A stretch of DNA of 64,000 bases, taken from Antedon mediterranea. Lineage: Eukaryota; Animalia; Echinodermata. Below the pieces are notes generated by a model, which was not told the DNA's origin, did no database searches, and saw only the letters and a program-made list of their open reading frames with translations. Where the stretch lies: assembly GCF_964355755.1 (NCBI RefSeq), contig NC_092673.1, positions 186,001 to 250,000 on the forward strand. The letters are read 5' to 3'. This document shows, piece by piece, positions 8,701 to 55,285 of this stretch. Positions within the stretch are counted from its first letter, which is position 1. Every line of letters starts with the position of its first letter. Position numbers and translations under genes: made by a program.

Positions 8701-10185
8701 GTTTTAATAGCTCATTCATGTAGTCACATAATAAGATTAGTAATGCCTATCATTTCCACCAAACAAGATAGAGTAATTTCTTATTTTTAATCACTTCATG
8801 CATTTTATATTCTATTTTCCGTACAGCACTGCAATTACGTAATTGTCATTGTCACTAGCCAATAGTTTGTATCTATAATTGTATGGCGCTGTATCTCGTC
8901 CATTCGACGTGCTGGAGACGGTTCTCTACACTCTGTATAGATATTTTGGTAGCAAGTGTGTGAACATTACTTACATTGCTTCTACCAGCTCTCATCATTA
9001 AACCGAATTTTAAGTTATCTCACACTGCTACTTTATTTTTTATATTGAAGTTAAATAGGCTTCTACCGTTCATTGAAGTATTATTCGTGAAAATGTTAAC
9101 TAATTTAGGTGTCACATTGAAATTAAGCATGGAACATCGTTAAACCCTACGAGTGTTATGGTAAAATACACTAATTGTTACCACGATATGTTTATGTGAC
9201 GCATGTAGATAGAATAAACAAAGACTTACAACATTGTCTTATTAACGTCATTATAAAAACAATTTGTATCGAATGTCTTTCACAAATTATTTGAATTTAA
9301 TTTGTTTTCCAAGTTGAGAATCACGAAAACATTGTGACCTAGCATTTGTTTGTATATAGCATGACCTTATCCTTCCCATAATCCTTCTCTTGTTCCTGTT
9401 CTTCTTCTCTTTCTCTCTTTAAGAAAGACAAATTTACCTCGGCATTGAACCAATAATATCTCAATAAATACAGATATTACTGTGAATATATGCTCTATAT
9501 TATAAATTACTGTATTGTATTCTCGTGCGTCCTGTTTAGTTTAACAGATGATGACATGGGCAGCAACCAATAACATAGGAGTTGAACATAGAAAACAGAC
9601 AAAATTGGAATATGACATAATAATCGTGTTGTTACGACGTCACTGTGATGAAATCTCAGAAATGTTTTTATATTCCACTAACGCATTAAATACGGATTAG
9701 AATTATTAATCAATTCGGATTACCTGATACACCATTTTTAATGTTGATGCATAAACATTTCATAACTGCGTAATCTAGTCCATCATAAATGAGATTAATC
9801 TTAATAGCATAAATGTGTGGAATATGTGAGTGATTGTGCTGCAGCTATTGTATTAATAACGTAGCAGTGTAGCAAGGGATACTTCAAGATAGTATATTGA
9901 GTTATGAAGTAAAAATGCAGCGTAAAGGATACATCATAAATAATACATGAATAATAAGCATGAACGGTCTATTTAAATAAACTGTTTCTGGTTTCGTCTT
10001 GTCATATGTTGTAAGGACCAGAATTAATTTGGCCTGGCATTGAAAGGTCCATTATATTATGTTATTATATTAAGTGGCGGAATATTAAATTTGTAGTAGT
10101 ATAATTAGTACGTAAAAACGGTCATATCGAACTATACTTACAATATCTATCATTAATAATCATTTATTTATTATTTAATTCACAG

Positions 10186-17619: not shown

Positions 17620-19342
17620 AAATAAGTAAATGTTAAAGCGTTTGAATATCTGCCACTGAACGTTCGTGGTTGCCTGAAATAAGTAAATGTTAAAGCGTTT
17701 GAATCTGCCACTGAACGTTCGTGATTGCCTGAAATAAGTAAATGTTAAAGCGTTTGAATATCTGCCACTGAACGTTCGTGATTGCCTGAAATAAGTCAAT
17801 GTTAAAGCGTTTGAATCTGCCACTGAACGTTCGTGGTTGCCTGAAATAAGTAAATGTTAAAGCGTTTGAATCTGCCACTGAACGTTCGTGGTTGCCTGAA
17901 ATAAGTAAATGTTAAAGCGTTTGAATCTGCCACTGAACGTTCGTGGTTGCCTGAAATAAGTAAATGTTAAAGCGTTTGAATCTGCCACTGAACGTTCGTG
18001 ATTGCCTGAAATAAGTAAATGTTAAAGCGTTTGAATCTGCCACTGAACGTTCGTGGTTGCCTGAAATAAGTAAATGTTAAAGCGTTTGAATCTGCCACTG
18101 AACGTTCGTGGTTGCCTGAAATAAGTAAATGTTAAAGCGTTTGAATATCTGCCACTGAACGTTCGTGGTTGCCTGAAATAAGTAAATGTTAAAGCGTTTG
18201 AATCTGCCACTGAACGTTCGTGATTGCCTGAAATAAGTAAATGTTAAAGCGTTTGAATCTGCCACTGAACGTTCGTGGTTGCCTGAAATAAGTAAATGTT
18301 AAAGCGTTTGAATATCTGCCACTGAACGTTCGTGGTTGCCTGAAATAAGTAAATGTTAAAGCGTTTGAATCTGCCACTGAACGTTCGTGATTGCCTGAAA
18401 TAAGTAAATGTTAAAGCGTTTGAATCTGCCACTGAACGTTCGTGATTGCCTGAAATAAGTAAATGTTAAAGCGTTTGAATCTGCCACTGAACGTTCGTGG
18501 TTGCCTGAAATAAGTAAATGTTAAAGCGTTTGAATATCTGCCACTGAACGTTCGTGGTTGCCTGAAATAAGTAAATGTTAAAGCGTTTGAATCTGCCACT
18601 GAACGTTCGTGATTGCCTGAAATAAGTAAATGTTAAAGCGTTTGAATCTGCCACTGAACGTTCGTGGTTGCCTGAAATAAGTAAATGTTAAAGCGTTAGA
18701 ATCTGCCACTGAACGTTCGTGGTTGCCTGAAATAAGTAAATGTTAAAGCGTTTGAATCTGCCACTGAACGTTCGTGGTTGCCTGAAATAAGTAAATGTTA
18801 AAGCGTTTGAATATCCGCCACTGAACGTTCGTGATTGCCTGAAATAAGTAAATGTTAAAGCGTTTGAATCTGCCACTGAACGTTCGTGATTGCCTGAAAT
18901 AAGTAAATGTTAAAGCGTTTGAATCTGCCACTGAACGTTCGTGGTTGCCTGAAATAAGTAAATGTTAAAGCGTTTGAATATCCGCCACTGAACGTTCGTG
19001 GTTGCCTGAAATAAGTAAATGTTAAAGCGTTTGAATATCCGCCACTGAACGTTCGTGGTTGCCTGAAATAAGTAAATGTTAAAGCGTTTGAATCTGCCAC
19101 TGAACGTTCGTGATTGCCTGAAATAAGTAAATGTTAAAGCGTTTGAATCTGCCACTGAACGTTCGTGGTTGCCTGAAATAAGTAAATGTTAAAGCGTTTG
19201 AATCTGCCACTGAACGTTCGTGATTGCCTGAAATAAGTAAATGTTAAAGCGTTTGAATCTGCCACTGAACGTTCGTGATTGCCTGAAATAAGTAAATGTT
19301 AAAGCGTTTGAATATCTGCCACTGAACGTTCGTGGTTGCCTG
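17620..19342. repeat. 55/57-bp minisatellite, ~31 copies
   Basis: Unit AAATAAGTAAATGTTAAAGCGTTTGAAT(AT)CTGCCACTGAACGTTCGTG(G/A)TTGCCTG; explains the stacked 62-81 aa ORFs. Confidence 0.97.
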
Positions 19343-21092
19343 ATAACGCTATCATCGTTGGTCCATTACGATGTCTCGCTTTACCTTTAATGATTATGAA
19401 AACAGGTTAATAATACCTTTACTATTATTATACGATTTGATATGTAACTATTTAATCTAATAAATAAATAAATAAATAAATATTTATGCAATAATTTACA
19501 TTTGAAAATGAAGTCATACTGGGCGTAAAGATAAACACTTACCTTTAGGCCTATACGGAAAATTAAAAAGAAGAAAAATAAGTTGCACAATTTCAAGATC
19601 CTAAAGTTGTCCTTGTATAATTCTATAATATAAAATAAAAATATAATATATATTCTATAATATTCTTTATAAAAAACTATTGATGAATATAAACAACACA
19701 TAGTCAAGGTGTAATATGGTGCATTTAATTTTTTCTTCAATTTACACAGTCATAAAAGTGGGCTTATTCATTAATTGCAAAGATTTTAAAAGTTACATCT
19801 TACATCAAATTCGTCCGTGAAACCATGCACAAATGAAACACGTTTATGCTGTGAGTGCAAAATTGCGACTTTAGTCAACGTTCGTACACATGGACGTAGG
19901 CTAGATGAGGCACTGGGAGTTCCATAGTTGGGAACCAAAAATATGCACCCCATTCATCAGTTTAAAAACAAAGACATGGAAAGCATATACATTTTGTCAA
20001 ACAATAGCCATGATTTTCGCCTCCAGTGTTTCGATTTTTTTTTATTTTACTCCTTACACCTTAACCAGTCTACGTCATTGCTACGCACGACGCACGCGTC
20101 AAATAATGTGACGTAATGTCACAGACTAATTTAAGACAAAATGTTAGCGCTACCGTTAGGATTCTAACGTATTATACATAATAAATATACAATCATTTAT
20201 CATTGATTTACACATTTTTACCGCAGGCATTATTTAGCTTATGAAATAATTACAGAATTAACACAAGACACGACATTGTTTTGGTTGGTTACAATCTTTA
20301 TAAAGTGTTACTATAGACTAAAATGATTTTATTTATAATGTATGTATTGTTTTCACCTCTCCAAATGTATCGTGAATATATATTATCAGTGACATGTGAA
20401 CAAGTCGAACCGATTTTGTAATTTTAATGTAAATTTTTTAAACTTTGTATAAAACAAAATGAACTATGATTGTAGGAAAGAATGACACTCTCCGCTGGAC
20501 TTGTTGATTTGCGTTTACAGACTGTTTATCAAACATCGCGTACACATTCATCAAAATAGTGTGATTTTATACAGCACAATAATATATAATACATTTTGGA
20601 CGTACATAAATGAAAGTCACCTTACCCCCTCTTTGATATTCTTGAATTGAGAGAGCATTTGATTAGACATCATATTTTAGGGACTATTATGTTGTCTTAA
20701 TATCAAAATATTGAAACTTGAAAAGACCACGATGAGTTTCTGTAATTTAGGCCATTGAGGATAGAAACACCACCATTCTTTTAAAACATAAAATTTGAAT
20801 AAATAAAGAAATTCCTTCATAGGCTAACTACAATAAATCCACTAATCGGTTATATAAAAAATGTTTTGTTTATTATAGCAATTTTAAATCACCAACATAG
20901 GTTTTTTTTTTTCATTTTTAAAAAGTAACAGATCATTTTTTTCCGTTGGACCATCAAATGCAAATTATTCAGTCATCAGAGTTGACTTTGAAATGATAGA
21001 ATTCTCTCTGTGCTAATTATTGTAACATCTGAAAATAAGTTTATATTATAGTTTAACAACGATTAGCCTATCCTATAAAATATAAAAGACGT

Positions 21093-24041
21093 TTATTTTC
21101 TCTCTTCGTATGCATTTCTTTTCCGATTAAAAAAGCCGCTTCTTTTAGCTGCGTAATCGCCTATTTTTTGCCAGTCTACATCGTATGCGTTTTTTCCTGA
21201 ACGTCTGTTGAAAAATCCACTTCTTTTTGATTGGCTTCCTTGCAAATATTGGTTTCTTAAATGATTCAAATATTTGATAATAGCTTCATGTTTTGCGATC
21301 TGTTCTTCAAGTTCAGCAATATCGCCCTCTTCTGGCCAAATTTGTGGTATACCAAGTCCAAGTGTGTTTTGAATCTGAAAGGACAGATAATAAATCGATT
21401 ACGCCATGAATCAATCAATAATTCGATTACGCCATGAATCAATCAATAAATCGATTACATCATGAATCAATCAATAAATAAACTACGCCATGAATCAATC
21501 AATAATTCGATTACACCATTAATCAATCAATAAATCGATTACGCCATGAATCAATCAATAAATCGATTACGCCATGAATCAATCAATAAATCGATTACGC
21601 TATGAATCAATCAATAAATCGATTACGCTATGAATCAATCAATATATCGATTACGCTATGAATCAATCAATATATCGATTACGCTATGAATCAATCAATA
21701 GATCGATTACGCTATGAATCAATCAATAGATCGATTACGCTATGAATCAATCAATAGATCGATTACGCTATGAATCAATCAATAGATCGTTTACTCCATG
21801 AATCAATCAATAGATCGATTACTCCATGAATCAATCAATAGATCGATTACTCCTTGAATCAATCAATAGATCGATTACTCCTTGAATCAATCAATAGATC
21901 GATTACTCCTTGAATCAATCAATAGATCGATTACTCCATGAATCAATCAATAGATCGATTACTCCATGAATCAATCAATAGATCGATTACTCCATGAATC
22001 AATCAATAGATCGATTACTCCATGAATCAATCAATAGATCGATTACTCCATGAATCAATCAATAGATCGATTACTCCATGAATCAATCAATAGATCGATT
22101 ACTCCATGAATCAATCAATAGATCGATTACTCCATGAATCAATCAATAGATCGATTACTCCATGAATCAATCAATAGATCGATTACTCCATGAATCAATC
22201 AATAGATCGATTACTCCATGAATCAATCAATAGATCGATTACTCCATGAATCAATCAATAGATCGATTACTCCATGAATCAATCAATAGATCGATTACTC
22301 CATGAATCAATCAATAGATCGATTACACTATGAGTCAATCAATAGATCGATTACACTATGAGTCAATCAAAAAATCGATTACGCCATGAATCAATCAAAA
22401 AATCGATTACGCTATGAATCAATCAAAAAATCGATTACGCTATGAATCAATCAAAAAATCGATTACACCATGAATCAATCAATAGATCGATTACACCATG
22501 AATCAATCAATAGATCGATTACACCATGAATCAATCAATAGATTGATTACGTCATAAATCAATTAAAAAATCGATTACACCATGAATCAATAAATAGATC
22601 GATTACACCATGAATCAATAAATAAATCGATTACACCATGAATCAATCAATAGATCGATTACACCATGAATCAATCAATAGATCGATTACACCATGAATC
22701 AATCAATAGATCGATTACACCATGAATCAATCAATAGATCGATTACACCATGAATCAATCAATAAAGCGATTACACCATGAATCAATCAATAAAGCGATT
22801 AAACTATGAGTCAATCAAAAAAATTGATTACTCTCTGAATCAATCAATAAATCGATTACGCCATAAATCAATCAATCGTGATATTAAAATAGTCAGTACT
22901 TGAATTAGTCGGATGTGGGAGGTCCATTCTCTGATTCTAATTGAATGTTGTTTTCATTACTTCTTCTATGGCTTTAAAATTACTACTGAAATATCAGTAA
23001 ATGTTTGTTTGTTTTATGTTCCAATAGAAGGTATCCATGGAAATAATATATCGCACCTGATCGTATCTATCACCGTCACACAATACCTTATTGATATATT
23101 ATATACAATTCTACCTTAGATGGCGGTTTATATATCATTATCTGTATCGTATCACAGTAATATATAATTTCAGAGTAGTATATTTATTTGTGTATACTGA
23201 TGAAGCTAAAGTGTTCATAATAGTTAGTTGTATACGGGTAATTTTACATTATTGAATATTGTGTAGTAATTTGAAAAGATTATGGTGTCAAATTGAATTG
23301 AACTATAGGATGAACGATACGCATGACGTCTCTCGTAACTTGGACGTAGCGCAATGCATGTAACAATCATGGCGTGGTGATGTGTCACTAATATCGTCGC
23401 TTGTAATTGGTCAACGGACTTGTGCTTCGTGTACGCCTTGTGGGAAACCAAGTTTAGGTAAGAGATTGCGCGCGTCCCAATCAATGATGATGATGATGAT
23501 GATGATGATGGAACAGTTAGGGCACTAACTAAATTTGCTATAATAACTTTATTTTGACATTTTGCAAGCGCTTAAATCTCCATAATACGCATTACTCATG
23601 AACATGTCAATCGTGTCAACAATAATTATACAATATATTATATTGGAAAAAACTCTCCGACCATTAATAGTAGTTGATTGTGAAACCAGTAATAGAAATA
23701 GGTTTGGACAATGTTCACACGCTAAAATGTCATATACAATAGTATTATGTAATAAATCATTCTACATAGAAATTTATATACTCAATGGTTCTGTGCATAT
23801 TCATTGGTAATGTTGTGATGTATTTCCCTAATCATTGCTAATACTTTCGCTGAGTGATTTTGCGATAAAATTACCTCACTCATCAACAATATTTAAGGTT
23901 TAATATTCGTATGGAGTGCAATTTGTGACAAATATTAGCATTATAACTTACTGGCCCTGATTCATATTCTGCTATATCTTCTGTACTTCCACATCCAACC
24001 ATCGTGATGGTAACCATCACAGTAAACAAAATTGAATACAT
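21093..24041 (-). CDS. Putative neuropeptide precursor, 123 aa, signal peptide plus two SGFFN peptides (achatin-like?)
   Basis: Exon 24041-23952 encodes MYSILFTVMVTITMVGCGSTEDIAEYESGP and ends at a GTAAGT donor; its acceptor TTTCAG is at 24091-24096, so the exon starts in 5'UTR. It splices in phase 0 via a TTTCAG acceptor to exon 21374-21093: IQNTLGLGIPQIWPEEGDIAELEEQIAKHEAIIKYLNHLRNQYLQGSQS-KR-SGFFN-RR-SGKNAYDVDWQKIGDYAA-KR-SGFFN-RKR-NAYEERK*. Hydrophobic N-terminus, acidic spacer and repeated dibasic-flanked peptides are typical of prepro-neuropeptides. Confidence 0.88.
21389..22876. repeat. 28-bp minisatellite, ~53 copies, intronic in the neuropeptide gene
   Basis: Unit AATCAATCAATAGATCGATTACTCCATG with blockwise variants. 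Confidence 0.97.
23484..23509. repeat. (GAT)n microsatellite
   Basis: ATGATGATG run. Confidence 0.9.
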
Positions 24042-25859
24042 ATTCTATGCTTTCGTTATTGGTGTACTACCTCGCTTGTACGCTTTTTATCTGAAACAAA
24101 CAAAATAGAATACCATGTTAAAATGTTGGAACATTGCATGGTATTACTATACCAGTGTAAGATTAAAGTATTCAGGGTTTACACTATATGTGATCAGGTG
24201 TACTACTATACTTCCTCATACTAATTCCTATAATATTTCATAATATAAATTCCATTCATTACTTTTAAAATTATCAATATTATTAGCATATTTCCACTAT
24301 GTGATCAGGTGCACTACCCTTTCCTCATGTTGATTCCATAATATTTCAAGTTCATTTATTAATTTTAACATTATCAATATTATTTTAGGCCATCCAATTA
24401 ATGACGTCAATATTGTTTCCATATTTAGGCTATATAATGATCTATTCTCTAAGTATTTGATTATATTTGTTTTTGCTGCTAGTAAGAAATTAGATCTCCC
24501 TCCCGGCCCATGGGAAATTTAACGTTATGAATTAATTAAATTTAAGGTATAGAAAGAAGAATTGAATTGATATTAGATTTTCCGTCCAGGGTGATGCTTG
24601 TTTACATGTTCTATTTAGGTTAAAGGCTGCTTTTAATTTCTGAAATTGTATGTGGTTAGCCACTAACTTCTTAGTTAGTTAGTACTTCAACCACCATAAC
24701 TCATGGCCACATTTATTCTACAGTACTGCCTCATCACACCTCTTTTCTAATTTTTTTTTTATAGAATTCTGTGCGCAATATGTCTGACTATTATCTGCCC
24801 TTTTATAAAGTGCACGCTACTTTGCAATCAAAAAAGATGGATAAATGATAATAAAATGAAAGTGTAATGAAGAATGAATGCAAAGTTGAGTAAATCTCTC
24901 AAAAGACAACACAAATAAGGATCGTTTACATAGTGGGTGTCTTTATACGAGTAAGTTGCCAACAGATTCAACAAACCCACAATATCGCAAGAGTCATCTA
25001 GCACTTCCAATGATTTGCCTATCTATTACACTCGTCTTTAATTCCCTGAAGCATGTAGAAATCTTCATCCGAAACCAATTATCCTTAATATGTGATTCCT
25101 ATCGCACATTAAGCGACTGTAATTGAACATGAGAATTTTAAATCCAATATTCGAAAATGTTGCAGATTTAATCTTAGAATGCGAATAAATATCAATATAT
25201 AATATAGATATATAGTCTTCTCACTAATGAATAGGAGCTGTGTTATGATGTCGTCGAATAAGTGTCATCTTCAAAAATGACATAGTAAAGTATACTAATT
25301 TATTTCTACTATTAGATCATCACATAGCTGTTCACTCCTGTACCGTGTCTTACTCCTGTACCGTGTTCTACTATTAGATCATCACATAGCTGTTCACTCC
25401 TGTACCGTGTTTTTTTTATATATACTATCTATAGTATGACATGGCCTTTTGAAAAACGTTTTCCGTCATTTCCACGACTTGTTTCTATATTTTTCTGTTT
25501 TGGGCAGGATGGTTTGTTATTGTGCTAAAGTCTACACTTTTTCCTTTTAAATCATTTTATATATAATAATCTTTATTGTCTTTCTTTCTTGTTTGTTCTT
25601 TTTCACATACATAAAATCAAAACTAAAGACAAAAGACCAAAAATAAAGCTTTCGCTTATCGAGTTTTGGCCTTTTAAAGTAAATAAAACTTAAACTAGAA
25701 CGTATATCATTTCTGAGAAAGAAAAATCTGAAGAAAATTAATTACATAAATGAAAATTAATAACTCACTGGCATTATCAATATGAATATGAAATAAGTAA
25801 TAGAAGAGTATTATACACATTTTTTTTGTTTTGTTTTTTAAATAAAAAAAACTAGAAAA

Positions 25860-26140
25860 AAACTAAGCATCATATAAGGTTATTAAATGTTCTTTGACTT
25901 TGATGGCAAATTGTGTTCTAAATGAAATTGACTTAATATTTACTGGGAGTTTATTCCAGAGTTTGGGACCTTGGTATGTTATATTGGTTTGACATAGAGT
26001 TGTACGGCAAAAGGGGATCGAGAGATTAAATATTTGGTTTATCCAGTTATTATTTATCAATAATGTGGTATAAATTTGGAAAGCACTAATTACATTCTAT
26101 TAACGGAATCAGGTGGACGTGATAACATTTTGCATTTATT
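25860..26140 (-). mobile_element. L2/CR1-type LINE 3' remnant
   Basis: IPFCRTTLCQTNITYQGPKLWNKLP matches the typical C-terminal LINE ORF2 motif G...WN.LP. Confidence 0.7.
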
Positions 26141-26145
26141 AACCT

Positions 26146-27781
26146 AAAGCTTGCTTCCCACGTGACGCAACGCAAGGACGTATACGCAACCTAAAGCTTG
26201 GTTCCCACTAGAACGTAACGCAAGGACGTAAACGCAACGTCCTTGCGTTACGTTCTAGTGGGAACCAAGCTTTAAAGCGTGGTTCCCACTAGCGACGCAA
26301 CGCAAGGACGTAACGCAACGCAAGTGAATTGACCAATCACAAGCGATGGCTTATTCGCTTGTGATTGCTAACTGTCTATAACTTCGCTTGTCATTAGTTA
26401 AAACTAGATGGTACGCTCGCTTCGCTCGCGTACCATCTAGTTCGTGCCCACAGATGGTTCTCGAATACATAGTAATTTCAGCGTAAAAAAACTGGCGATT
26501 TCAAATGTACGTACGGCAGGACTATAAAACATTGTCGTTTACAGAAACAAATAAATAGACACAATGATTTATGTAGTCAACCAAAATTAGCACCTAGAAA
26601 CTTGTCACAAAATGAGTCGAAATTTGTTATTTGGACTCATTTAAACAAACCCAATTTTGTTAAATTATTCTTTATATTTCTTTATTATCCAATCAGTAAC
26701 GAAATGTTTTTTTTATATAGGCCTATAAATAATATACCACTAAATAGAGTCAAACGATTTAATACCGTACTTTATTAAAACTGTCTCTGTCTCATGGTCG
26801 ATTGAAATAGTAAAGTACAATTAAAGACCACTAATACGTTTATATTTTTGTAATTATTAATGAATACAAACGTTGAGAAACAACTGACAGTAAAAAAGTA
26901 TATATTATTATGTGTTTATAATCTAAAAGTAGGGGCTACCCACACTCACAGTAATAACGTTTATTAGTATATTTGTTTATATTATATCTAACAGTACCAA
27001 CACACTTTTGATTCAAATGGCGATCAAAAGTGGTTAATACCTATTTGCAGTATTGTATAGCATTACAATACTATTTCTGTTTATTCTCCAAGGGTCTATA
27101 AATTGACCTACTTGTGTTAACCCATGGAGGTAAGCAATAATTTGGAATGTTCCATTCATTGCAAATCAATACATTTCTATAAACGTTATTAAATCTATCA
27201 AAATAGTATTTTTTAAAGAAAATCGGCCTGTCTTCAACATTATGATGCTGTACTCGAGCTGTTCAACCGGTTTTCAGCCATTAAAAACAGTTATCGTAGG
27301 AGGAGATAGGAAAATGCGAAGCATCCTCGTATTATTGTATGCGGGTATTTTTCACGATGGACATATATTAAACAGTGTATACCACGATCGGAAAACACCC
27401 CTATTTGGGGCAAATAATGGAACCTAAATTCGTTTTAATCGTCAATAACTAATTATCTGACTCAATTTAATTAGTAAACAGGGTTACATCAGGTGGTTAA
27501 AATCAGTACCGAAAGTACGAACCAACTGTGTATACCATCGAGTAAAAATTCTAGAAGTAAGGCGCGATTTACCGAATTTTGCCCTTACGTAAATTTATAT
27601 ATAGACGCTTGCGTTGCATTTACGTCTTTGCGTTACGTTCTCGTGGGAACCAAGCTTTAAGCTTGCTTCCCACGTGACGCAACGCAAAGACGTATACGCA
27701 ACGCAAGCGTGTTGACCAAAGGCAGCTCACTTACGTTGCGTCTACGTCCTTGCGTTGCGTCCTAAAGGGAACCAAGCTTTA
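26146..27781. mobile_element. Cluster of nested and tandem Harbinger/PIF-like MITEs (AGCTTGGTTCCCAC termini, ACGCA repeats)
   Basis: Several copies with AAGCTTGG/CTTCCCAC...GGGAACCAAGCTT termini separated by TTA/TAA; related copies at ~43255-43420 and ~51631-51750. Confidence 0.8.
26404..27605 (-). mobile_element. Non-autonomous Helitron nested in a MITE
   Basis: The minus strand begins TC(TATATATAAA) and ends with the hairpin CTAGATGGTACGCGAGCGAAGCGAGCGTACCATCTAG; there is no TSD. The flanks rejoin into the ...TTAGTTAAAA|CGCTTGCGTTGC MITE sequence seen in related copies. Confidence 0.8.
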
Positions 27782-28615
27782 TTAAATGAAAGTATTATGG
27801 GTGTAATCGACTAATTCAAACAAACTTTTCAATCTAAACAAAATTTAAGCTTAAAATTATTTTTGTACAATAATATTTTTACAAAAATACAATCAATTTA
27901 GACACTGCGTTGTTGTGGAATTCGCATTACTAAAAGCTGAATCATTAGAATGCAATTTTTTTATAAAGAAATTGCTTATTTTAATATATTTTAAAGTATG
28001 TTTTATGTATGACCGTTTTCAACAAACCGATAATTATCTGGGAAATTATTCCAATTCTATCTTTTTATCATTTTGAATGGAATTAATTTGTGAATGTAAT
28101 GTAACAGAAGAATAAAAATAGATTATTATATCAATTCAATCCAACGCATGCGCGGTAGTGACAGAATCTTCTCGGAATTTGGAAGATGAGTGAAAGTATT
28201 TGGAGAGATGCTGGCCGTAGTGGTGGAATCTTGTCTATTACGTCATAAATTGAGTTAACACTCTAACTCGATATGTTAATGTGTTCCTATAATAAGAAAC
28301 TTTGGTTAATAAGTATATCAGCACACCTCTTTGAATTGTCGGTTTAAGTTCATCATCACAGGATTCATTCAATTCAATTCAATTCGACCAAAATTGGCAA
28401 ACATCAACATAAAAACAAAACAAGAAAGTATCATTTGGTCAAGGGAAGACTGTTGCCCGTCTTCATAATTACATAACGTATGCAAACAAAGAAACAATTT
28501 TACAATAAATAACAAAAAAAAGCGCCCAATTTAACAATCGGTTGACGGCACAAGTCCGTTGTCAATGAACAAGAACATAAATAACGAAGGATTAACGTTA
28601 ATAGAATGTTCATTA

Positions 28616-28776
28616 AGCTCTGTCTACACTATCGAACTAGTTTGACAAAAAAAGTGTGATGCGCCCAAATATGGTAGTGATATGCTTAAATATGGTAGTG
28701 ATATGACATCATTGTGTCCATATATGGGCACATCACATTTTTTTGTCACATAAAGTTTGATAGTGTAGACAGAGCT
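28616..28776. mobile_element. Harbinger-like MITE, TTA target duplication
   Basis: TIR AGCTCTGTCTACACTATC...GATAGTGTAGACAGAGCT flanked by TTA on both sides; a partial second copy lies at ~45283-45382. Confidence 0.85.
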
Positions 28777-30121
28777 TTACACAAGGATTGAAGTCACGTG
28801 ATACTATTATAACATTTATTTATTATACGATTTACAAAAAGGTTAGATTTTTTTAAATACACAATTTAAATTCAAAAATAGGTTTTATGTTCTAAAGTAA
28901 ACCTAACATAAACATATCTTATATTCACTACGTAGAGTTTTTTTTTAATTATTATCATTATTATTGTAGGTCGGTTATAAATATTTTATCAAATTGTTGA
29001 AGGTCAGCATTAGTCTCAATGCCATAGCTTTTACACGTAAATATACAATAAATAATTCAGTTTTTAATCCACAAAACTTTAATTGAAACGATGTATTTTT
29101 TATACTCTGTAATTTTAAAGAACATTTGGATTAAAATAAATAAAAACGAACTAATTTGTTATTTTTAAAATCCATCAATCATTTGTAAATTGTTGTTATA
29201 CTACAACACTTTTGAAAGGTTCTTAAGAATCAATCGGTTTATTTAAACGACAAGAAATTAAAAAAAAACAAATTAATGAACTTTTCTACTAATAACGTAA
29301 TACAAATGACAGAATACTTGTACTACTGGCAATGTATTTATTATAATTTGCTTAATATTTCATTCCTTATAATACAATTACATTTCACATAAACGTACGT
29401 GATCAGTTGATTAAACATTAAAATTAACGCCACGTTTCCATTAGACCCTTCTAATGGAGGAGTATTCAATATAGTTAAAACGGGTATTTTAACTCTATTT
29501 TTTTAGCAATGTTTTAAGCGTGATAGCTTTCATTTCATGTGATTTAAATGATAAGATAATGGATATGTTGCTCCATAGTAGGTTTATATACAGCCACAGT
29601 GGCTGTGAGCTGCTCACCCTTCTTTACTCGTGACTATGGACTATTACAGGTGTATTGATTGGGATAGCGGTAGACCTTATTAAAACAAACTCATTTTTAA
29701 TTTGCAGTTCTTATAATCCTTTGTTTCACAATCCGATTCTTATTTTTAATTGTTTCTTTAAACATAATACCGTCGGCAATTATGCCAATTAATTATCAAC
29801 AAGGTAGAGTTGGTTATTTGCCACCTACTTCTCCATTTAAGATTATTTTTTCTGAGACCACATCCCTCAATGTAAGACTGTTTGCCTCCGTCACTGTAGA
29901 CCACCTCTGTGCTTTTAGACCATCCCCCTTAATTTAAGATTGTATGACTCTGTATGATGTAATTCTCACACCCCTTAATGTACTGTTTGCCTTCATCACC
30001 GTAGACCAGCCCTCGTTTTAAGATGGTTTATCTTTGTGATTGCACACCATTCCCTTCAATTTATGTTTTCTCCTGTCACTCTTGACTACACCCTTTATGT
30101 AAAATTGGTTCGCTTCTGTCA

Positions 30122-30545
30122 AGGTTTGCCTCTGTTACTCTAGAACAACCCCTTAATGTTCGCTTCTGTCATGTCAATGTAAACCACACCTCTCTAATAT
30201 TGCATGTTACCTCTGTAGCTACACATCCCTCAATTTAAGCTTGCTTGCCTCTGTTACTCTAGAACAACCCCTTAATGTTCGCTTCTGTCAATGTAAACCA
30301 CACCTCTCTAATATTGCATGTTACCTCTGTAGCTACACATCCCTCAATTTAAGCTTGTTTGCCTCTGTTACTCTAGAACAACCCCTTAACGTTCGCTTCT
30401 GTCAATGTAAACCACACCTCTCTAATATTGCATGTTACCTCTGTAGCTATACATACCCCTCAATTTAAGCTTGTTTGCCTCTGTTACTCTAGAACAACCC
30501 TTTAATGTTCGCTTCTGTCAATTAAACCACACCTCTCAATTTAAA
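30122..30545. repeat. 114-116-bp tandem repeat (~3.5 copies) built on an older ~38-bp unit
   Basis: The unit TTTGCCTCTGTTACTCTAGAACAACCCCTTAATG... repeats; degenerate ~38-bp relatives extend back to ~29830. Confidence 0.85.
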
Positions 30546-33500
30546 CCTGTAGACCACACTCTTCATGATTATTTATGATTTCTAACCTATGTTTAATATG
30601 TGAACCATTGTAATTTCATTAGACATTATCATATTTTTCCAATAATTGAATGGTGCATCATCAATTTTCCTATATTTACGATGTGCATTAATTATACCCA
30701 ATGTTTGTAATTGACATGATAATTTTGTAAAAATATAGTCCATAACCTACGCATTATCACTCGTCTGTGATCTAATAACCAAGGCTATAGAGCGGAATTA
30801 TACTACTGCGAAATAAGCGTAAAATAATATCGGAAGCGGTCAAGTTGATAATGTTATATAAAGCTAATTGCAAAGATTATAGACTTGATGGTGTCATCTA
30901 AGTGCGTATCTGAACGTTTGAAGTATATTCATTACAATGATATAAGTGTCATGTAGTGGCTAACTTGATGTTATTACCATTGTAGTGCTAACGTGCTTAT
31001 TAAGTAGCGTGATAGATGTTGAGTAGATTAGATTTTTTTTACATTTAACTTAGGCAATTTTATTTTTTATAATTTCTTTTTTATTCATTAGGATTTGTAA
31101 TATTTAATATAGGGATTACGTTACAGAAGCTCACACATCAGCTCTCCAATAAATCATAAATAATACTTTTTTTTTAAGTTCGAATGTGTAACCAGTCTCA
31201 AATGTCCTATTTTTTTTTCAAAAGCTTTTCCAACTTTCATAAAGAAGTAGCTGATATAAACTACTTAAAACAATTTTTAAAAACGTTCGGCGTTTTCCCG
31301 AAATGTAGAATAAACAAGTATTTGTAATGACATTTTAAATTTAATATTATCATTTTATTAAATTTATTAATATAGATAACATAACAAAAGTATAACATTA
31401 ATGTTTGAATTTTCCTGGCGCCTCTAAAATGACGGGAATAAAATGATTCTAATCTCAAAGCAAGAACCACATCAAAAAATCAGAAATCAAATTGATATTC
31501 TAGAATATTGATCAAGCTGATGTACTTCGAATAACAACGATTATACAGCCTTGAACTGATAAATGTGAGACAAAAATAAAATAGATAAATTATTCGACTA
31601 AGTCTCCATTAAATGGGCAGTGGAATAATCAGAATGACATTAACAGGAATTGTTTGGAAGAGTTGATGGAACAGACTTTACTAATAGCTTTTAAAAGGTG
31701 TTTTTATCAAAATTAATATCAAGAATATAGAGAATGAGAGGCTATGGCAGTATAGCGACTGTCATACAATATTATTGTATGCTAAAGGTTATTTTGAGTT
31801 ATTGCTAATTATTTTATAATAATTGGTTTGCTTATAATATTCATAATTGTTGTTTTCTTTAAAATAACACATTTTCATATGAAATTTAAAACACTTTATT
31901 CGGTGGTCAGTAATCTATAGGCCTATTTAACAAAATTGTAATTTTATATTTTATAACTCAGAGGTTTATTTATCATTTATCATCAACTGTCCCCCTACGT
32001 CATAAATATAGGTACTTAGATAAAGACTACACAGTTTTATTTAGCTCCTTAATTATGACTAACAACTATCGGAAATACTATCAACAAATATACATTTAAG
32101 TATGGCAAGCCAATATTGCATTTATCTTCTTTAACTTAGTAGGCCTACTTGTCAGCATGGAGTAACCTTTTCTCCATGACAAGACAAAACGGATTTTTAG
32201 TAAACCAAAAACTAAACTTCAATTACCGTCCAAATCGACCTTCAGTTTTTTCTTCGTGGGTTAACCAAGTAACGATCAGAAATGATGGGAAACAAAATAA
32301 GAGCGGCTAAAACGATAGAAAATTTAATATGGTCAGCCAACATTGCCTTTAGCAGTTAAAACCAAGTCAATCTAAGAATGATGGAATCAGACCAATATTA
32401 AGGAAGATGATACTTGCTTTTGAATCCGAGCTAGTCAGTCGATAATGTAATATAATACTCAAAATGTTAATTCTATAGCAATATCGCTTCAAACGCAACA
32501 GGCATAAATATGATAATTGATACAATAGATATACGTATCTATTTCAAACTCAAGAGAAAGCGTTTATGTATATATGAGATGGTTAATATATCGTAGACAA
32601 AGATTAAAATGGCAAAGATCAAATTAATGCAATACATTTCGGTACTTAGAAGTTGTTTGAAGATCTATTTTAAAGGATCGTTTCCTGTTTCTGCTGCAGC
32701 CTACGTGTTCAGATTATGTTTTAACGAACATATCAAATTAAATAGCATGTTTTAGGTAAACGAGAAGATATTTATACTCGATCGAACACGGAAAGATGTG
32801 CAAGATCAAATTTAATATTTTTGGTAAATTAAACCGATGCTCTATTTGCCGAATCTACTCAAATCTTGTTATAACGAATCATACCTTGGACGAGTTTGAA
32901 TACAGATCTATTGAAAAAGACAATTCTTAAGCCAATCGTGTTTCAATACTGTGAAACCAGTTTATTGTAAACGAATCAAATGAAAGGGGGATAGGGCCGA
33001 TTAAACAAGACAAAGTTCGAAATTTAGACATATAGGTTTAAGATTTTAATACATTTTTTTCATAACATTGCAAGAAATAAGAAGGAAAACACTGACTTGT
33101 GTTATAGCTTATAAAAGTAATTTTGAATTAGTGACGTATAGTAGCATTTCCAATAGATGTTAATGGTTCTTGCGGCCTGCCTTTCCTGGACTCTTTATCT
33201 TAAGCAGCACTTAAACATGTACTTAAGAATGCAATTCACATTCTTTTTGTTCCCACCCCTTCTCATTATAATGGAAGTCATTTAAAACTCGAACTCTATA
33301 ACAATTACCATAAAGATAATGTTGTGTGTGCGTGTTTTTTTTCACCTTTTTTATGTATTATCTGTTTTATTTGAAGATGTTGTGTGTGCGTGTTTTTTTT
33401 TCACCTTTTTTATGTATTATCTGTTTTATTTGAAGATGTTGTGTACAAAAACACATTTCTAATGTAATGTTTCTTTTATTGGAAAAAACGCGCATTCATT

Positions 33501-34612
33501 CATTCATTTTATTTCTTCATTTATTACATTACTATTTGAATCCATTATTCATATGATATTCAAGAAATTCCCCCACGTTGAAAGAACATTCAGATGAATC
33601 TTTATGAAGAAAAGACTTCACTACTAAAGCTGATGTAAGACCCAGGGAATCCAGGTTTTTGCAAACATATTGTTGCTTATTGTGCCAATATTAAAGAACT
33701 ATCGAACGTAAAGATGTTTCCGTGACTCAGAAACGTCTATGAGAAAGAAAATAATGTCCGTGACTGTTTTACAAAACTAAAGAGTATTAAAGATAACACC
33801 TGCAATAAGGAAACACATTAATGTTTGTTACGCAGGTAAAAGGTCTAAGAAGCTACTAAATCTATTTCTTATTTAATATATACATTTACTCGGTCAGTTA
33901 ATTGTTTGTTTTTTTTTTTGTTTTTTTTTTATTATATTCAGTTCACCAACAGCGATGAAACCGCCACTAACAGGTTGAATCAAAGAACGTGAAGATGATA
34001 ATACTTCTATACGAATATATGTAACTTAAATACCGATGCCATTGTAACATAAATAAAAGTGATAATTACAATTAAAATTTATAGGGATACTGATATTGTC
34101 TCAATTGGTAAAAGCGCGCAGTACCTTATGGCAAAAAAGAATTAACCAATGTGATAAACGGTAAAGTGTCTACGACGCTATTTTGATGTTTCCTTTACAA
34201 GATAAAATTTAAAGTATGTATGTATAACAGACAAGCACATTCGTCATTTATTTTATTTAAAATCACAAGTAAAAAAGTTTGTTTTGAAAAATTACCAGTT
34301 ATTCAAAACAGTTAACCATTACCGATGAGTAAACGTCATAACTAAATTTGGCTCTTACATCATCAGTCATGGAAACAAATCGTGACCTTTGGTTTCAAGG
34401 GTCTTTAAAAAAATGAGTATAGGATGAATGTACCTTTTTAAGTCATACCCAGTTGTAAATATTATTTGCTAAGATTTTGTTTAATTACTTGTTCAAATTA
34501 GACAAATTAACGCCCATGTCAGGCTATCCAAAGTATTTTTCCAGAGAAAAAGGAAGAAAATGACGCAATTCAGTTACATAATGTAAAATATATGTTCTTT
34601 GCCTGATTTGTT

Positions 34613-35165
34613 TATATATATATAAACACATTAGGCAATGAATATTAAAATTGAAATTCAATTAATTAATTTGAAACGATAAAGATGAGGAAATCTGTGA
34701 GAATGAGAAAAATTCGCCCCAACCGAGACTCGAACCCGGACCGCCTGCTTCATGCAGATGTCCTAGCCATTAGACCACTGGGGCTTTCATGGTATTGTTC
34801 AAACTCGATTGGATAGCGACTCTTTAACATTCTCGGCGAAGTACGGCGGAACAGCACTAGTCCTCAGTTGTACGCACGCGCACCAGAGATCAAATTGATT
34901 TATTCACGAGGCGGGATCTCCGAAGAGATACTTTTATATATATAAACACATTAGGCAATGAATATTAATTCAAAACCGCCCGGTGATATACTGAAATTCA
35001 ATTAATTAATTTGAAACGATAAAGATGAGGAAATCTGTGAGAATGAGAAAAAGTCGCCCCAACCGAGATTCGAACTCGGACCGCCTGCTTGATATGCAGA
35101 TGTCCTAACCATTAGACCACTGGGGCTTTCATGGTATTGTTCAAACTCGATTGGATAGCGACTCT
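34613..35165 (-). repeat. Tandem ~340-bp repeat with tRNA-derived cores (34716-34784 and 35055-35126)
   Basis: The minus-strand sequence GCCCCAGTGGTCTAATGGTTAGGACATCTGCATATCAAGCAGGCGGTCCGAGTTCGAATCTCGGTTGGGGCG has A and B boxes and cloverleaf stems but a non-canonical anticodon loop, which is partly deleted in copy 1. Confidence 0.8.
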
Positions 35166-36601
35166 ATAAACCAAACAAAAGTGAGAATAACAATGAAATA
35201 GTTATTATTATTATTATTGGAAATAACTGTATTGAAGAGGAATTGAATAAATAGTGGTTAACCCCACAAAAAAAAGATTTTGTTTAATACTTGTTCAAAT
35301 TAGACAAATTAACGCCCATGTTAGGCTATCCAAAGTATTTTTCCAGCGAAAAAGGAAGAAAATGAAGCAATTCAGTTGTCGCTTAAAACGGTGTCAATGA
35401 AATAGTAACGATTATATCCTGTCAACGCGAATCAGACAAAATAGCCTGAACTAATTAAACTAAACCATTAATGTTCATTGAAAATCATAAAATACACATT
35501 CAAGTACACGTAAATTTTATTAGATTAAATACACTGTTATCATTAGTTGACAGATAATGTTACTCTTATTTGAAATGACAAATTTAGAAATGTGTTTTAT
35601 AAAAGAAAAAAGTCTGCAACTCAATTAAAATAACAGGGTTAGTAATGAGCAGGAACTACAGTATAATATAAAGACTACAAGATTAAATTGGATAAGAAAA
35701 AACGCATTCTAAAGTGCTGATTTGCGTTTGTATTTCCACCGTCAATGCAATTTCAAAAAGGAAGACACTACTTCACATCGTCAACGACCAATAGAAACGT
35801 CCAGTGTCACTAAGAGCAATAACTATAAAACAATGTTTAAAACATGTAAAACAAAATCGATAAAAATGACAAACGCAAAATGAAAAATAAGATACAATGG
35901 TTAAAATGCAATGGTATCCAATGGTTACCAAACAACTTACCTTTGCATTTTGCCCAAATAATTCTAAAAAATATGATTGATTACATCAACAACAGCCTAG
36001 CTGTGACACCATTCGTCATATTAAAGGAAATGCTGACGACATTATGCTATGTGAACCAATGCTTTTTTTGATTGACCATTACGCAGGTGTGAGTACATAA
36101 ATAGAATTATTGATTGTCATATTATTCTGGTTAAAGGTATACGAAACAATTAACTTCAACATTAATAAATATTAATTTAACTTCGATATAGACACTGACT
36201 TTTGTACAATATTCCTTGATCGTAAAAAATAGATTGTCCATAGTATAACATTTAAACAGCTTGCAAATAAGCGGTATAATTTATCCGATAAAAATTACAA
36301 CTTTGTTAAATGGAATCCAAATCAAGTTTAAAAATGAATTTAAATTCAAGTCCACATTGTTTATATAGCCAAAAAGCTACATGGACCTTACACAAGAAGA
36401 ATGCATTTTCTTTAGCTAAGTCCCTTTACAAACAAGTAAGGTACAAGACAGTAACATAATAGAAAAAGCAGCGCGAGTTTCAACAAAAATTGTAGCTGCA
36501 TGGATCTAGATATATTTCTTTAACACGTTAGTTGGGAAGTAAAACAATATTCAAAATGTTCACTTGATATTGATAAAAATACTCTGAAACAAATCAGCTG
36601 T

Positions 36602-36790
36602 AAGTCCTATAACGTATAAAGATATTTGATTAAGTTTAATACTACAGTAGGTTCCCTACATGAAGTCCTATAACGTATAAAGATATTTGATTAAGTTTAA
36701 TACTACAGTAGGTTCCCTACATGAAGTCCTATAACGTATAAAGATATTTGATTAAGTTTAATACTACAGTAGGTTCCCTACATGAAGTCT
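36602..36790. repeat. 61-bp tandem repeat, 3 copies
   Basis: AAGTCCTATAACGTATAAAGATATTTGATTAAGTTTAATACTACAGTAGGTTCCCTACATG repeated exactly. Confidence 0.95.
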
Positions 36791-37281
36791 TAACAAAATA
36801 CCGTAGCAATAATAATTTGGCCAAAACACCTCGTTACTGTTACTCTATTTCTTTCTAAACATTTTCACGTTTTCACACATTGTACAATTATTTAAAATAA
36901 TCTTGTTTTTAGTGTGATATTATTGAATTTCACAAGAATAAGAACTTGTTTAACAAATTCAAGATTCCATTTCCAACGATTTAATAAATAAATTAACGCT
37001 TACTCGTGAAGTTTGATGCGACATCCAGTTCAATTCTTTGTTAATTTTTCATGTTTCAATATTTATACTAGTTAATTATTAAATCAATGTTTAGTATTCT
37101 CGTTATGTTACAAATAATCTATAAATACATATTAACTTTAATATATAGATATTAAAGACATTCCGTCCTGGGAACATTTGTAATTGGATCAATCTTAGTC
37201 ATACTATAAATTTGTCACAAACTATAAACTGTAAACATTTGCTTACTATGCTGTTTTTTTTTATACAGTCAATTTGTTTAT

Positions 37282-37414
37282 GCATAATAGAAAAATAACG
37301 CTTAAAAAAGAACGACGTTTCAACTCCATCATGGGTTCATTATGGAGTCGAAACGTCGTTCTTTTTAACCGTTATTTTTCTATTATGTAGTTACAATAAG
37401 CGTACCCTCATTCG
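37282..37414. mobile_element. Hairpin insertion with a 12-bp TSD (Penelope-like end?)
   Basis: ~50-bp inverted arms at 37283-37387 plus a 27-nt tail, flanked by CAATTTGTTTAT at 37270-37281 and 37415-37426. Confidence 0.7.
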
Positions 37415-39291
37415 CAATTTGTTTATTCTTATTAAATATTGAAAAATACTTAATTGTACATATTGAAAACACAATCATATTTAAATAAGGTTCGCGATAT
37501 CACCTATTGAAACTTTTTATTAGTTTTAAATCAGAAGAGATTAGTTTACTTCTGATATGATCGATTACTGTAAATTATTTAGTTATGTAATACAGCTATT
37601 AAATGCATTCACTCAATAACAAAAAATAAAATTTACTGACTAATTACGACTGGAAAAATGTGATCTAAAAAAACAAACTGAATTGAAGACTTGACGTTGT
37701 CTCTTCTATGTCAACATTCGTTTAGTCTCGGCAGCAGAAAATACAAATGCCATACACGATAAAAGAGTAACGTTACCATTATGTTTATACATGACATGTT
37801 GTTTTCCATTATCAATTTATTAATAAACACAAGAGTCAAACGTGATGTTTTTACATTGCATTTCGCACACTAAATAATATCAATGACACGACTGTATTAA
37901 AACGCTTTGAGTAATAGTTTTTGATATTGTTTTAATTATTGCAAATTTTAAATATAGACCTGAAAATGCCATTAGGAATGGAATTGAAATATCAGCTTAC
38001 ATTATTGAGCCTTTCGATCATATTAAACGTTACGTTATTCAAATACAATTATATTTAGGAACCCGTCACCAATGAGATAAGCATTACTTTTCGAAGATAC
38101 GTCAACGTGACGGGCGCGCACGTGCAGAGACGCTTCCGCCGATGAATTAGTGATGAGTTTTCAGTTCGATCACTGTAAACTCAAAACAGAGGGTTAGACT
38201 GTATTTCAAACTATAGAAAATCTTTCAATTACATTTTCAATCTAGATTTTGAATAATTCTCCTAATTCTAAAGCTCAATTAGTTACTTGGATTAGTCTAT
38301 TTTTGTGTCTGGATTATCATCGTACACTTTTGGAGTTATGCTATTCGAATTAGTTGATTGTGTGGGTAGCGTCCATTATCCCAAAATGGAGAGATTAAAG
38401 CCTCAATCTGTTCACTTAATGACCGTCAAATGTGTAGATATATTATTTACGTGTTTGGTTATTTCAAAACAGATATGAATATTTGTATATTGTTTTGTTC
38501 GAACTAAATAATGCCAAAACCATCTTACGATTCTGGTCCTTATTTTTTTCAAAAGTTACAAAATACAAACCGTCATCTAATTGTGAGAGCCTTTGAATTG
38601 GATAGTTCTTGGCTTGTCTGTATCATTTAACCTAAATATTGGCACCTGAATGATCGAACCAATAACTTTCTCAATTCCAGCGCAACATACCGCCGTACGT
38701 AATACGCACATTGCAACGCATTGGTGAGAAACGCGTACTGCAAAATATATACGAGAATGAAAGAAAAACGATAGCTCTCAGCATTTAATTTACTGCGGAA
38801 AAATATAAACGCGTGTAACATATTTATTAGAAACTTAACCCTGACTAAGTATGTCAACAATATTAATTGCAGCCAGAAGCAATCGCTTTCTAATGAAAAA
38901 ACTGTTGCTTTTGAGAAGTGATAGGAACAGATATAATGAGGTTATATAGTCCATTTAAAATTATTATGTATAAAATAACATTTCTTTATAAATACAGTAC
39001 AGTACAGTATGAGTACAGTATACATTATTACTACAAAGGCGTTTCTAAATTTCATTTTGCATATTCAACATTATTCATGGTCTAAATCCTAATAATATTG
39101 AAATTTAAAATGTAATCTAATTATCATGCTAATTATTGATTGGTGTATTTAGATTACAAGACTCGGTGTTGATCGATTAAAACCTGCGTCTACGTCTTAA
39201 GAATTATGCTGGTTTGGTAAGAAATTACTAGCAATCTCAAAAAACAATATTATACTATATAATGATAATTTTTTTAATAGATACAACTTAC

Positions 39292-39460
39292 CTACTTTTG
39301 TGAGGCTACCAACAAATTTACTGTCCGTAGCGAAATCTCCCGTTAGCTGCGATCGTTGCGAGGTACTTTATAACTATGAATTGTCTTACCAAACTTAGCT
39401 TGCTTATCGTCGGCGCGCCACGTTCCTATTGGCCAGTATTTCGTCATCAACTACGTCACA
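39292..39460 (-). promoter_or_regulatory. Candidate non-coding first exon and Pol II promoter, probably of the neuropeptide precursor gene
   Basis: On the minus strand: CRE-like TGACGTA (39452-39458) and TGACG (39442-39446), CCAAT (39428-39432), TATAAA (39367-39372), then a perfect AG|GTAAGT donor at 39292/39291. The link to the 24090 acceptor (15-kb intron) is inferred. Confidence 0.45.
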
Positions 39461-41502
39461 AGCACTGCGTGAATTATGCGTGTCGTTTTTCATTGTTACT
39501 TGAATGTGTAAGTTGTGCGTTCAGATTTGCTAGCTAATTACACTCAACAACATCTCCCCCGTATCGTCTATATTGACCAGCTCAATGGTTCATTTGATCA
39601 CACCAATCGACACAATATAATAAGATGACAGATTTCAAATGAAAACGTCAAACAAATATCTCGCGAGTTTATTAGTTTCAAGTCGAAGATTTGGTGGAAG
39701 AATACATCACAATGGGTTTCCGTTGTGGAGTAACTAACCGACTAATCAGATACAACGATGTATAGAAAAGTCATTGCACTTCAAAAGGTACAATCAATAC
39801 TAGTAAATAATGATGGTATGCAATAACATTTTCAGACGGTGCCGGTTCGAAGCGCAATTATGCAAAATGTGACTGAGAGTAAGTTATTAATTTAGTCACA
39901 TTGTAATTTAGCTTGTTTACCCAATTTGTCTTTGCTTAAATATCGTCAATAGATCTTAGCAATATTTAATTATCTAATACAGGCCTATTGTATGTAACTG
40001 CGTGGGTACGGTAGCCAATATCAAAAGTATATATTATTTCTGTTTTTGCTTATGCACGTATATATATGGCCTAAACCAGATTCCGTCTGCTATAACATTA
40101 TATGTTAAGTGTTAAGCTAGTCCAATAAATACCAATATTAAATACCACCAATCAAATCTTTACTCCTGCTCGTGTTTATTCATAGTACTTTAGAAAATGT
40201 TATTGCATACCATCATTATTTTTTATGTATCGAAGCAAAATATAAAACATATAGGCGTACAGTAGTAACCTTGTAAATGTCATAAATTGCGTCAGGAAGC
40301 AACAAAAAAATTAACTCAAACAATATAAGATGATAATTTTGAATCAATATAGGCAACAAAAATAACAACAATATCAAATACATAATGATTCCGGAAGTAA
40401 AATGATCGACATGCATTTGACTTATGTAAACCTTTATGAAACCAAACACTTGAACTACATAGAATCGTTAACAATACCATTATATACCATTATACCACAA
40501 TACCATTATATTACACTATTACTACATAGAATCGTTAACAATACCATTATATTACACTATTACTATTATGAATGTACATGTACTGCTGTAAAGTTCTACA
40601 TCTTTGTAGGCCACTACATTTTGTGATATTTAAACGATCGCCAAAATTAAGTTTTTGCGGAGAAATTAAATTATGTCGTCAAAATTAAAGCTAATTTTTA
40701 AAGGGTAAGGCCACAAAAACAATTGAACTTGCAATAACATGACGTGTCTAATAGGTTATGTAGTGTTTGTTTAGCTACTTTATGTGATATTAAAAAGATG
40801 ATTAATTATGAACTCTAGTGGTGATAAATACCGTAGTAGTAATACATGCAACAAAATAACATTTAACGTGAAATAATTATCTCTTGACATGTAATATATT
40901 GAGAGGATAAGATGTAGTTATGAACACGTCATCATGTTTTATGTACAGAGTCAGATGGAAGGATGTGTTCTCTACAAAGTTCCTATAATTTGATTCATAA
41001 TAACATCCAATGAATTTGTCCACAAAGCAAGTTTAACCAGAGTTCTTTACTCGATATCTACGATCGGCATGACACACACTTCATTTGAAAGTAAAGCTTG
41101 TTAAATTATATTTGTTTATGTTTAATTAATGCATTTGTTGCGTCTATCTTGATTAATTGTAAATGAATTTCCACTTTATAGAAACAACTTCAGAGAAAAC
41201 ACATTGAAAATTAATTAATATATTGTTGGATCTACGACGGCAACATCAAAAACAATACAGTGCTTCTGAAATTAGCTAAGTTCATTAACTCTGTCTGCCT
41301 GTAGGTCTATTCCATTCAAACTAATTCAATTGTAACTTCATAAAAGTGAAATAAAATTGTATCTATAACTTCTCAGTTACTTTAAGAAACGGTGCTTCCA
41401 ATTTAATACAACAATTGTGTATTGCACTGACACGGGCTAATGTTTCCTATTGACAATAAATAATGTTTAAATTACATATTTTTGTAATTGTGTGCATAAC
41501 AA

Positions 41503-55103: not shown

Positions 55104-55285
55104 TTTTTATGTTTCTGTATTCTGCAACTGAAATTAATTGTGAATCGAATGATAAATGTGATGGTATTTATACTTTTCCTCAAGGAAATTTAACATTCCG
55201 GATAAAGGAAAAGTTTACTGAGTTGTTTGATGTTTATCTTATATCTGAAACATCTGAAAAGGGGTGCAGCAGCCATGGTTATATA

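Follow-up and report, generated by a model that had tools for sequence, protein, structure and literature searches.

The neuropeptide precursor PCNP10 from Antedon mediterranea, a feather star, is a likely divergent crinoid orthologue of the NG-peptide (neuropeptide-S/CCAP-type) precursors. Its gene lies on the minus strand of the window, the 64,000-nucleotide stretch of DNA analysed here (contig NC_092673.1, positions 186,001 to 250,000), and encodes a protein with two copies of the pentapeptide SGFFN. We describe PCNP10 as a likely rather than a proven member of the family because Asn-Gly, amide and neurophysin are absent and database searches gave no link. The proposed NG link was not met in the literature covered; PCNP10 as such has been published before, and the finding is to that extent less surprising.

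Structure and transcription of the PCNP10 gene

The coding sequence is composed of two exons on the minus strand, 24041-23952 and 21374-21093, which join into 372 nt encoding 123 residues and a stop codon. The splice donor (CCA/GTAAGT) and acceptor (CTTTCAG/) are canonical, as the first-pass annotation had proposed, and the coding intron is of phase 0 and 2577 nt long. In the two-exon model of the Anneissia orthologue, the first coding exon is 96 nt long and likewise ends in phase 0. A non-coding first exon is located 15.2 kb upstream of the coding exons. The features of the gene are as follows.

39292..39657, minus strand: exon 1, 366 nt, 5′ UTR only; ends at a GTAAGT donor and matches the published PCNP10 cDNA
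24091..39291, minus strand: intron 1, 15,201 nt, GT-AG, with abundant dispersed repeats
23952..24090, minus strand: exon 2, 139 nt; contains the remainder of the 5′ UTR, the ATG (24041), the predicted signal peptide and the first part of the acidic spacer
21375..23951, minus strand: intron 2, 2577 nt, phase 0; contains 53 tandem copies of a 28-bp repeat (21389-22876)
21093..21374, minus strand: coding part of exon 3, residues 31-123 and stop
21297..21338, minus strand: spacer motif 1, W43-I56; W, with I at +6, L at +9 and I at +13
21228..21272, minus strand: spacer motif 2, Y65-S79; YL..RNxY..G..S, directly before the first KR
21207..21221, minus strand: SGFFN copy 1, residues 82-86, KR before and RR after
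21126..21140, minus strand: SGFFN copy 2, residues 109-113, KR before and RKR after
19760..21092, minus strand: 3′ UTR, with AATAAA at 20874, 20333 and 20046

The gene is real, transcribed and spliced. A 1738-nt contig of sequencing run X1 spans 19760-21374, and its loose end at 21374 starts with the last part of the upstream coding exon in reverse complement. The 23952/21374 junction, for which the first-pass annotation had suggested a search of RNA reads, is present in this spliced contig. Run X1 is RNA by guess, a guess based on the splicing of its contig. In runs X3 and X5, contigs read on into intron sequence as far as 21418. Exon 1 matches, by eye, the opening 366 nt of the A. mediterranea PCNP10 cDNA in print, and X1 contig sequence spans 39424-39658 in the exon 1 region. 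The joint of exons 1 and 2 is absent from the 15 joints listed out of 1073, a listing dominated by repeats and neutral on this point. The earlier gene model was right in its coding exons and made no mention of this further non-coding exon at 39657-39292. At the other end, the length of the published cDNA (1857 nt) predicts a terminus near 20023, and the X1 contig extends to 19760.

Residues 1-18 are hydrophobic, and the predicted signal peptide comprises about residues 1-19. The signal peptide was predicted for PCNP10 in the 2022 paper (PMC9793003).

The window protein is identical, letter for letter by eye, to A. mediterranea PCNP10, described in 2022 by Aleotti et al. (PMC9793003) from Antedon mediterranea, Florometra serratissima and Anneissia japonica. 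The published entry is the same protein with the same two SGFFN copies. The first-pass annotation had called the gene hidden, which does not hold for a precursor already in print. It had also named a match to a described precursor family as a point against itself; such a match exists at the level of the gene, and the accessible sections of the paper assign PCNP10 to no family. For PCNP2-20, these sections report no homology and do not mention achatin (PMC9793003). For PCNP10, the sections examined contain no data on gene structure, on expression or from mass spectrometry. In full-text literature, PMC9793003 is the only paper matching either SGFFN together with neuropeptide, or PCNP10.

The Anneissia orthologue (XP_033126457.1) is 77% identical and is the only database homologue found. 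As a side observation, PCNP9 presumably resembles protease inhibitors of the potato inhibitor I type rather than neuropeptide precursors. The PCNP9 sequences in the supplement of PMC9793003 share the pattern WP.LVG...DFR.DRVRI.

Processing sites and conservation of SGFFN

Across all six frames of the window, no ORF other than PCNP10 has a dibasic-flanked peptide that is repeated. Both copies lie where the first-pass annotation had placed them (KR...RR at 21207-21221 and KR...RKR at 21126-21140), and the stop codon follows 10 residues beyond the second. The copies are encoded by AGT GGA TTT TTC AAC and AGC GGC TTT TTT AAT, so that four of the five codons differ and every change is synonymous, in agreement with the earlier codon comparison.

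The peptide is also conserved between species. SGFFN and its basic flanks are unchanged in the PCNP10 sequences of Antedon, Florometra and Anneissia (PMC9793003, supplement). A contig from a second organism (run X2) aligns over 21058-21357; the 20 substitutions listed affect 18 codons (synonymous in 11, non-synonymous in 7), and the SGFFN codons contain none of them. The orthologue check suggested in the first-pass annotation thus finds SGFFN invariant in three crinoid genera, which supports its view of a neuropeptide precursor under purifying selection on this peptide.

The residue after Asn is Arg in both copies. With no C-terminal Gly, a free C terminus is predicted, and the earlier claim that the peptide is not amidated is upheld. 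The Arg codon after copy 1 (21206-21204) occupies the position of the amidating Gly in NG precursors. Any Arg codon can be turned into a Gly codon by a change of one base; such a step is easy, yet it is not evidence.

Similarity to NG-peptide precursors

SGFFN fits the length and the x-G-F-aromatic-x pattern of NGFWN and NGFYN from Saccoglossus and of NGFFF and NGFFY from sea urchin, starfish and brittle stars. The second copy can be written as KR-xGFFN-R-KR, against KR-NGFWN-G-KR in the hemichordate. PCNP10 carries two copies of a dibasic-flanked pentapeptide behind a signal peptide and an acidic spacer, in line with a pattern of at least two x-G-F/I-aromatic-x copies so placed, and the NG precursors of urchin, starfish and brittle stars likewise carry two copies (PMC4422128).

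The spacer contains two motifs that recur in NG precursors. The motif p values discussed here (2e-5 to 0.05) are post hoc, the motifs having been picked by eye and the null composition assumed; only three control motifs were scored, and the NG precursors compared are related to one another. The tryptophan of motif 1 lies at residue 43/45 in crinoids and, by eye, at residue 40 in Saccoglossus, 45 in Ophionotus and 45 in Asterias. Local scores of motif 1 against these three precursors are 35, 30 and 26, with p values of 0.002, 0.012 and 0.046 against random 40-mers and of 0.008, 0.046 and 0.16 against random 120-mers, respectively. A single unrelated control scored 23 (p 0.12 and 0.37 for 40-mers and 120-mers). 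In a published brittle-star alignment of 27 rows, some of them duplicates of a species (PMC5627052), the tryptophan is found by eye in 19 of the 23 rows that cover its column, and all 19 have I or V at +6.

Motif 2 immediately precedes the first KR and reads RNQYLQGSQS in the crinoid and RNNYQAGLES in one brittle star. Scored without the KR and without the peptide, it gives an anchored p value of 1.7e-5 (1 of 60,000) for this brittle-star precursor and 0.005 for a second one; the unanchored values are 0.006 and 0.004. RNxY is present in 14 of the 27 rows of the brittle-star alignment and RSxY in 6 further rows, together 20 of 27 (by eye, PMC5627052). The brittle-star NG precursors contain both motifs in the order seen in PCNP10, namely signal peptide, motif 1, motif 2, KR and peptides. 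The Saccoglossus NG precursor has one of the two, motif 1, in common with PCNP10.

The coding intron of PCNP10 follows codon 30 in phase 0. The Apostichopus NGIWYamide gene likewise has a phase-0 first coding intron just past the signal peptide (PMC6586643), after codon 37 (CDS 1-111). The shared phase lends weak support to NG orthology, as one NG gene was compared and phase 0 is common.

Differences from NG precursors and homology searches

PCNP10 differs from NG precursors in several respects. Position 1 of the peptide is Ser instead of Asn, and the amidating Gly is replaced by Arg. The Asn-Gly motif is absent, with Ser-Gly in both copies of all three crinoids; because of this replacement, PCNP10 is not classed here as a strict NG peptide. 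PCNP10 is about half as long as the NG precursors, and its copies are 20 residues apart, whereas theirs are in tandem. PCNP10 encodes no neurophysin, and a regular-expression scan of the six frames of the window found no neurophysin-like pattern. A scan of the same kind for a vasopressin/oxytocin-type gene was negative in the window. The Apostichopus NG precursor is without neurophysin, like PCNP10.

Neither spacer motif is clear in the NG precursors of urchin, Apostichopus and Branchiostoma (three of the six inspected by eye), and motif 2 is recognised in brittle stars only. An unrelated precursor, a calcitonin-like one from Meara, has a similarly placed WP..DIA stretch (PMC6188537).

Homology searches returned the Anneissia orthologue only and no NG precursor, and a further search among 4919 longer candidates linked none to PCNP10. 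Pfam has no family for the precursor. A feature search of the ESM Atlas returned DH31, PBAN, FARP and NPFF precursors, which are generic matches, with no NPS/CCAP/neurophysin cluster among the matches listed; in a structure search of the same resource, TM was below 0.5 in all 10 rows. The 2022 authors, with brittle-star and starfish precursors as queries in BLASTP (E 0.1) and CLANS, found no homology (PMC9793003). No title proposing a PCNP10-NG link was found for crinoid or Antedon NG peptides, with subscription papers, theses and bioRxiv supplements outside the coverage.

A rival reading is that PCNP10 belongs to a crinoid-specific family, its likeness to the NG motifs being due to chance or to convergence on a generic amphipathic sorting helix. 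Homologues are found in crinoids only, the specialists of 2022 reported no homology in the accessible sections of their paper (PMC9793003), and acidic spacers containing W occur in unrelated precursors (PMC6188537). Such a family is nevertheless unlikely, as the peptide pattern, the two separate motifs of the spacer and the order in which they stand jointly indicate one family, and retention of the NPS/CCAP receptor suggests that its ligand was retained as well. An NG-type ancestry of PCNP10 is preferred.

Comparison with achatins and pedal peptides/orcokinins

The first-pass annotation had proposed an achatin-like signalling system. In such a system, Ser would be trimmed to leave GFFN, Phe2 would be isomerised to the D-form, and the product would act on an achatin-type receptor. 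Like SGFFN, the achatins (GFGN in Saccoglossus, Branchiostoma and xenacoelomorphs; GdFFD in Aplysia) are short, non-amidated and dibasic-flanked and are of the G-F-x-N kind. No Gly precedes the basic residues of PCNP10, which leaves the C terminus free as in achatins. GFFN is one residue from GFGN of deuterostomes and xenacoelomorphs (PMC6188537) and from Aplysia GFFD (PMC4721866). Some achatin precursors have a bulky residue at position 3 (GFIN, GFFD), and in Xenoturbella N-terminally extended achatins (TP-, EP- and DP-GFGN) are known (PMC6188537). Achatin signalling is present in hemichordates (PMC5818035, PMC10508912), and the main texts of the starfish, brittle-star, sea-cucumber and crinoid surveys searched name no achatin-type precursor.

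The details of the peptide, however, fit poorly. Achatins are usually Gly-first tetrapeptides, GFGN in deuterostomes and xenacoelomorphs (PMC6188537), whereas SGFFN has five residues and starts with a Ser that is invariant in both copies of three genera, so that no Gly-first tetrapeptide follows the cleavage site. In Aplysia GdFFD it is residue 2 that has the D-form (PMC4721866), a place taken in SGFFN by achiral Gly, for which no D-form exists. The Xenoturbella extensions are X-Pro dipeptides and not a single Ser, and the achatin precursors inspected in full carry at least five copies, compared with two in PCNP10 (PMC6188537). The ten residues before the first KR resemble those of two achatin precursors at chance level (p 0.68 and 0.97), and the tryptophan of motif 1 was seen in none of the displayed achatin precursors, some of which are partial. 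With a Ser-first pentapeptide, an achiral second residue and no spacer similarity in the two scored precursors, the achatin link is not supported and appears quite improbable. On sequence grounds, an NG-peptide precursor is the better fit.

Pedal peptide/orcokinin-type peptides often end in SGF-like motifs. PCNP10 could on this basis be a minimised precursor of that type: the peptides are often non-amidated, crinoid members have an aromatic residue near the C terminus, and no such precursor is reported for A. mediterranea in the accessible sections of PMC9793003. We consider this very improbable. Anneissia, with 12 peptide copies, and Florometra each have a pedal peptide/orcokinin precursor in addition to PCNP10, and SGFFN has neither the N-terminal Phe nor the Asp-X-Leu core nor the many copies of the crinoid peptides (PMC9793003).

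A multicopy precursor of SFWN-amide in Xenoturbella (SFxNamide) resembles NGFWNamide, SFRNGVamide and SGFFN; it was treated as xenacoelomorph-specific (PMC6188537). To judge from these peptides, it could belong to the same family as the other three.

A candidate ligand for the feather-star NPS/CCAP-type receptor

A. mediterranea possesses an NPS/CCAP-type receptor (KP171537), and an NG precursor was not found in this species by BLAST or NG-motif search (PMC4422128). The accessible sections of the 2022 survey likewise report none among three crinoids (PMC9793003). An S-G peptide without neurophysin would be missed by searches of these kinds. The vacancy is not unique to NG peptides, since other families, among them GnRH and corazonin, are also missing from the crinoid list of monomeric peptides in that survey (PMC9793003). 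In urochordates, NPS/CCAP receptors and their precursors were lost together (PMC4422128), and this coincidence suggests that a crinoid lineage that retained the receptor also retained a ligand. PCNP10 may well be the NG-peptide gene of crinoids, and its SGFFN the natural ligand for the feather-star receptor, which has been without a known ligand since 2015.

The proposed maturation follows standard prohormone processing. The signal peptide would route the precursor into secretory granules, prohormone convertases would cut at KR and at RR/RKR, and a carboxypeptidase would remove the basic tail, giving two copies of free-acid SGFFN per precursor. By homology, SGFFN would then act on the orphan NPS/CCAP-type receptor of A. 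mediterranea. In the sea urchin, the receptor of this type responds at 0.4 nM to NGFFFamide and at 367 nM to NGIWYamide, the more divergent of the two; given this weaker response, the crinoid receptor would have co-evolved with its peptide. In other echinoderms, NG peptides affect muscle, spawning and the stiffness of connective tissue (PMC10603993). By analogy, SGFFN may modulate muscle or connective tissue and is a candidate regulator for crinoid arms.

The history envisaged for PCNP10 comprises a change of Asn1 to Ser, a change of the amide-donor Gly to Arg, and the disappearance of neurophysin from the C terminus. Neurophysin has been lost from the NG family separately in sea cucumbers and vertebrates (PMC6156427), so that the crinoid loss, if real, would be the third among deuterostomes. 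PCNP10 would in that case be an invertebrate deuterostome member of the NG family with neither Asn-Gly nor amide nor neurophysin, and would indicate that a receptor can follow its ligand even when the family motif and amidation are lost. It would also fill the crinoid gap in the neuropeptide-S/NG/CCAP family and inform the ancestral ambulacrarian peptide: the C-terminal Asn, found also in hemichordate NGFWN and NGFYN, would suggest that the ancestor of ambulacrarians had a peptide of the xGF-aromatic-N form. The proposed pairing offers a cheap and direct test that takes one pentapeptide and one cloned receptor.

Neighbouring genes and repeats

A second putative neuropeptide gene lies tail-to-tail with PCNP10, about 5-6 kb away. 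The segments 10183-10239 and 14796-14915 on the plus strand are the last two coding exons of a 113-residue uncharacterized A. mediterranea protein (P0002), whose database label agrees with A. mediterranea, an echinoderm, as the host. The database protein has a hydrophobic N terminus followed by a peptide ending NRWKS-G-KR; the part that encodes the peptide (residues 1-55) could not be located in the window. Starfish corazonin ends NRWKAG-NH2 (PMC9974683) and sea-cucumber corazonin ends YRWRAG. From this similarity, P0002 is likely a crinoid corazonin-type precursor, a type unreported for crinoids in the main text of PMC9793003.

PDB sequence searches with two ORFs neighbouring PCNP10 were empty. 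The Pfam scan of the window covered 145 of its 1042 ORFs of at least 30 residues, chosen by a crude coding score, and three proteins. An exon of a SUEL rhamnose/galactose-binding lectin was found at 47817-48101 on the minus strand (E 4e-12), and a degenerate SUEL-like stretch lies near 53200-53560. A gene labelled latrophilin-2 adjoins the vasopressin/oxytocin-type gene in other echinoderms (PMC10532012); nothing in the window shows the SUEL exon to be that gene. At 56630-58054 on the minus strand lies the reverse transcriptase of a non-LTR retrotransposon, broken and in two frames. The window further contains long minisatellites at 13708-14637 (62 bp x 15), 17620-19343 (55 bp x 31), 21389-22876 (28 bp x 53, within intron 2 of PCNP10) and 55256-55934 (65 bp x 10.5). 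Finally, a multi-exon gene for the catalytic subunit of RNase H2 extends over 58700-62200 on the plus strand, with Pfam RNase_HII matches in four ORFs.
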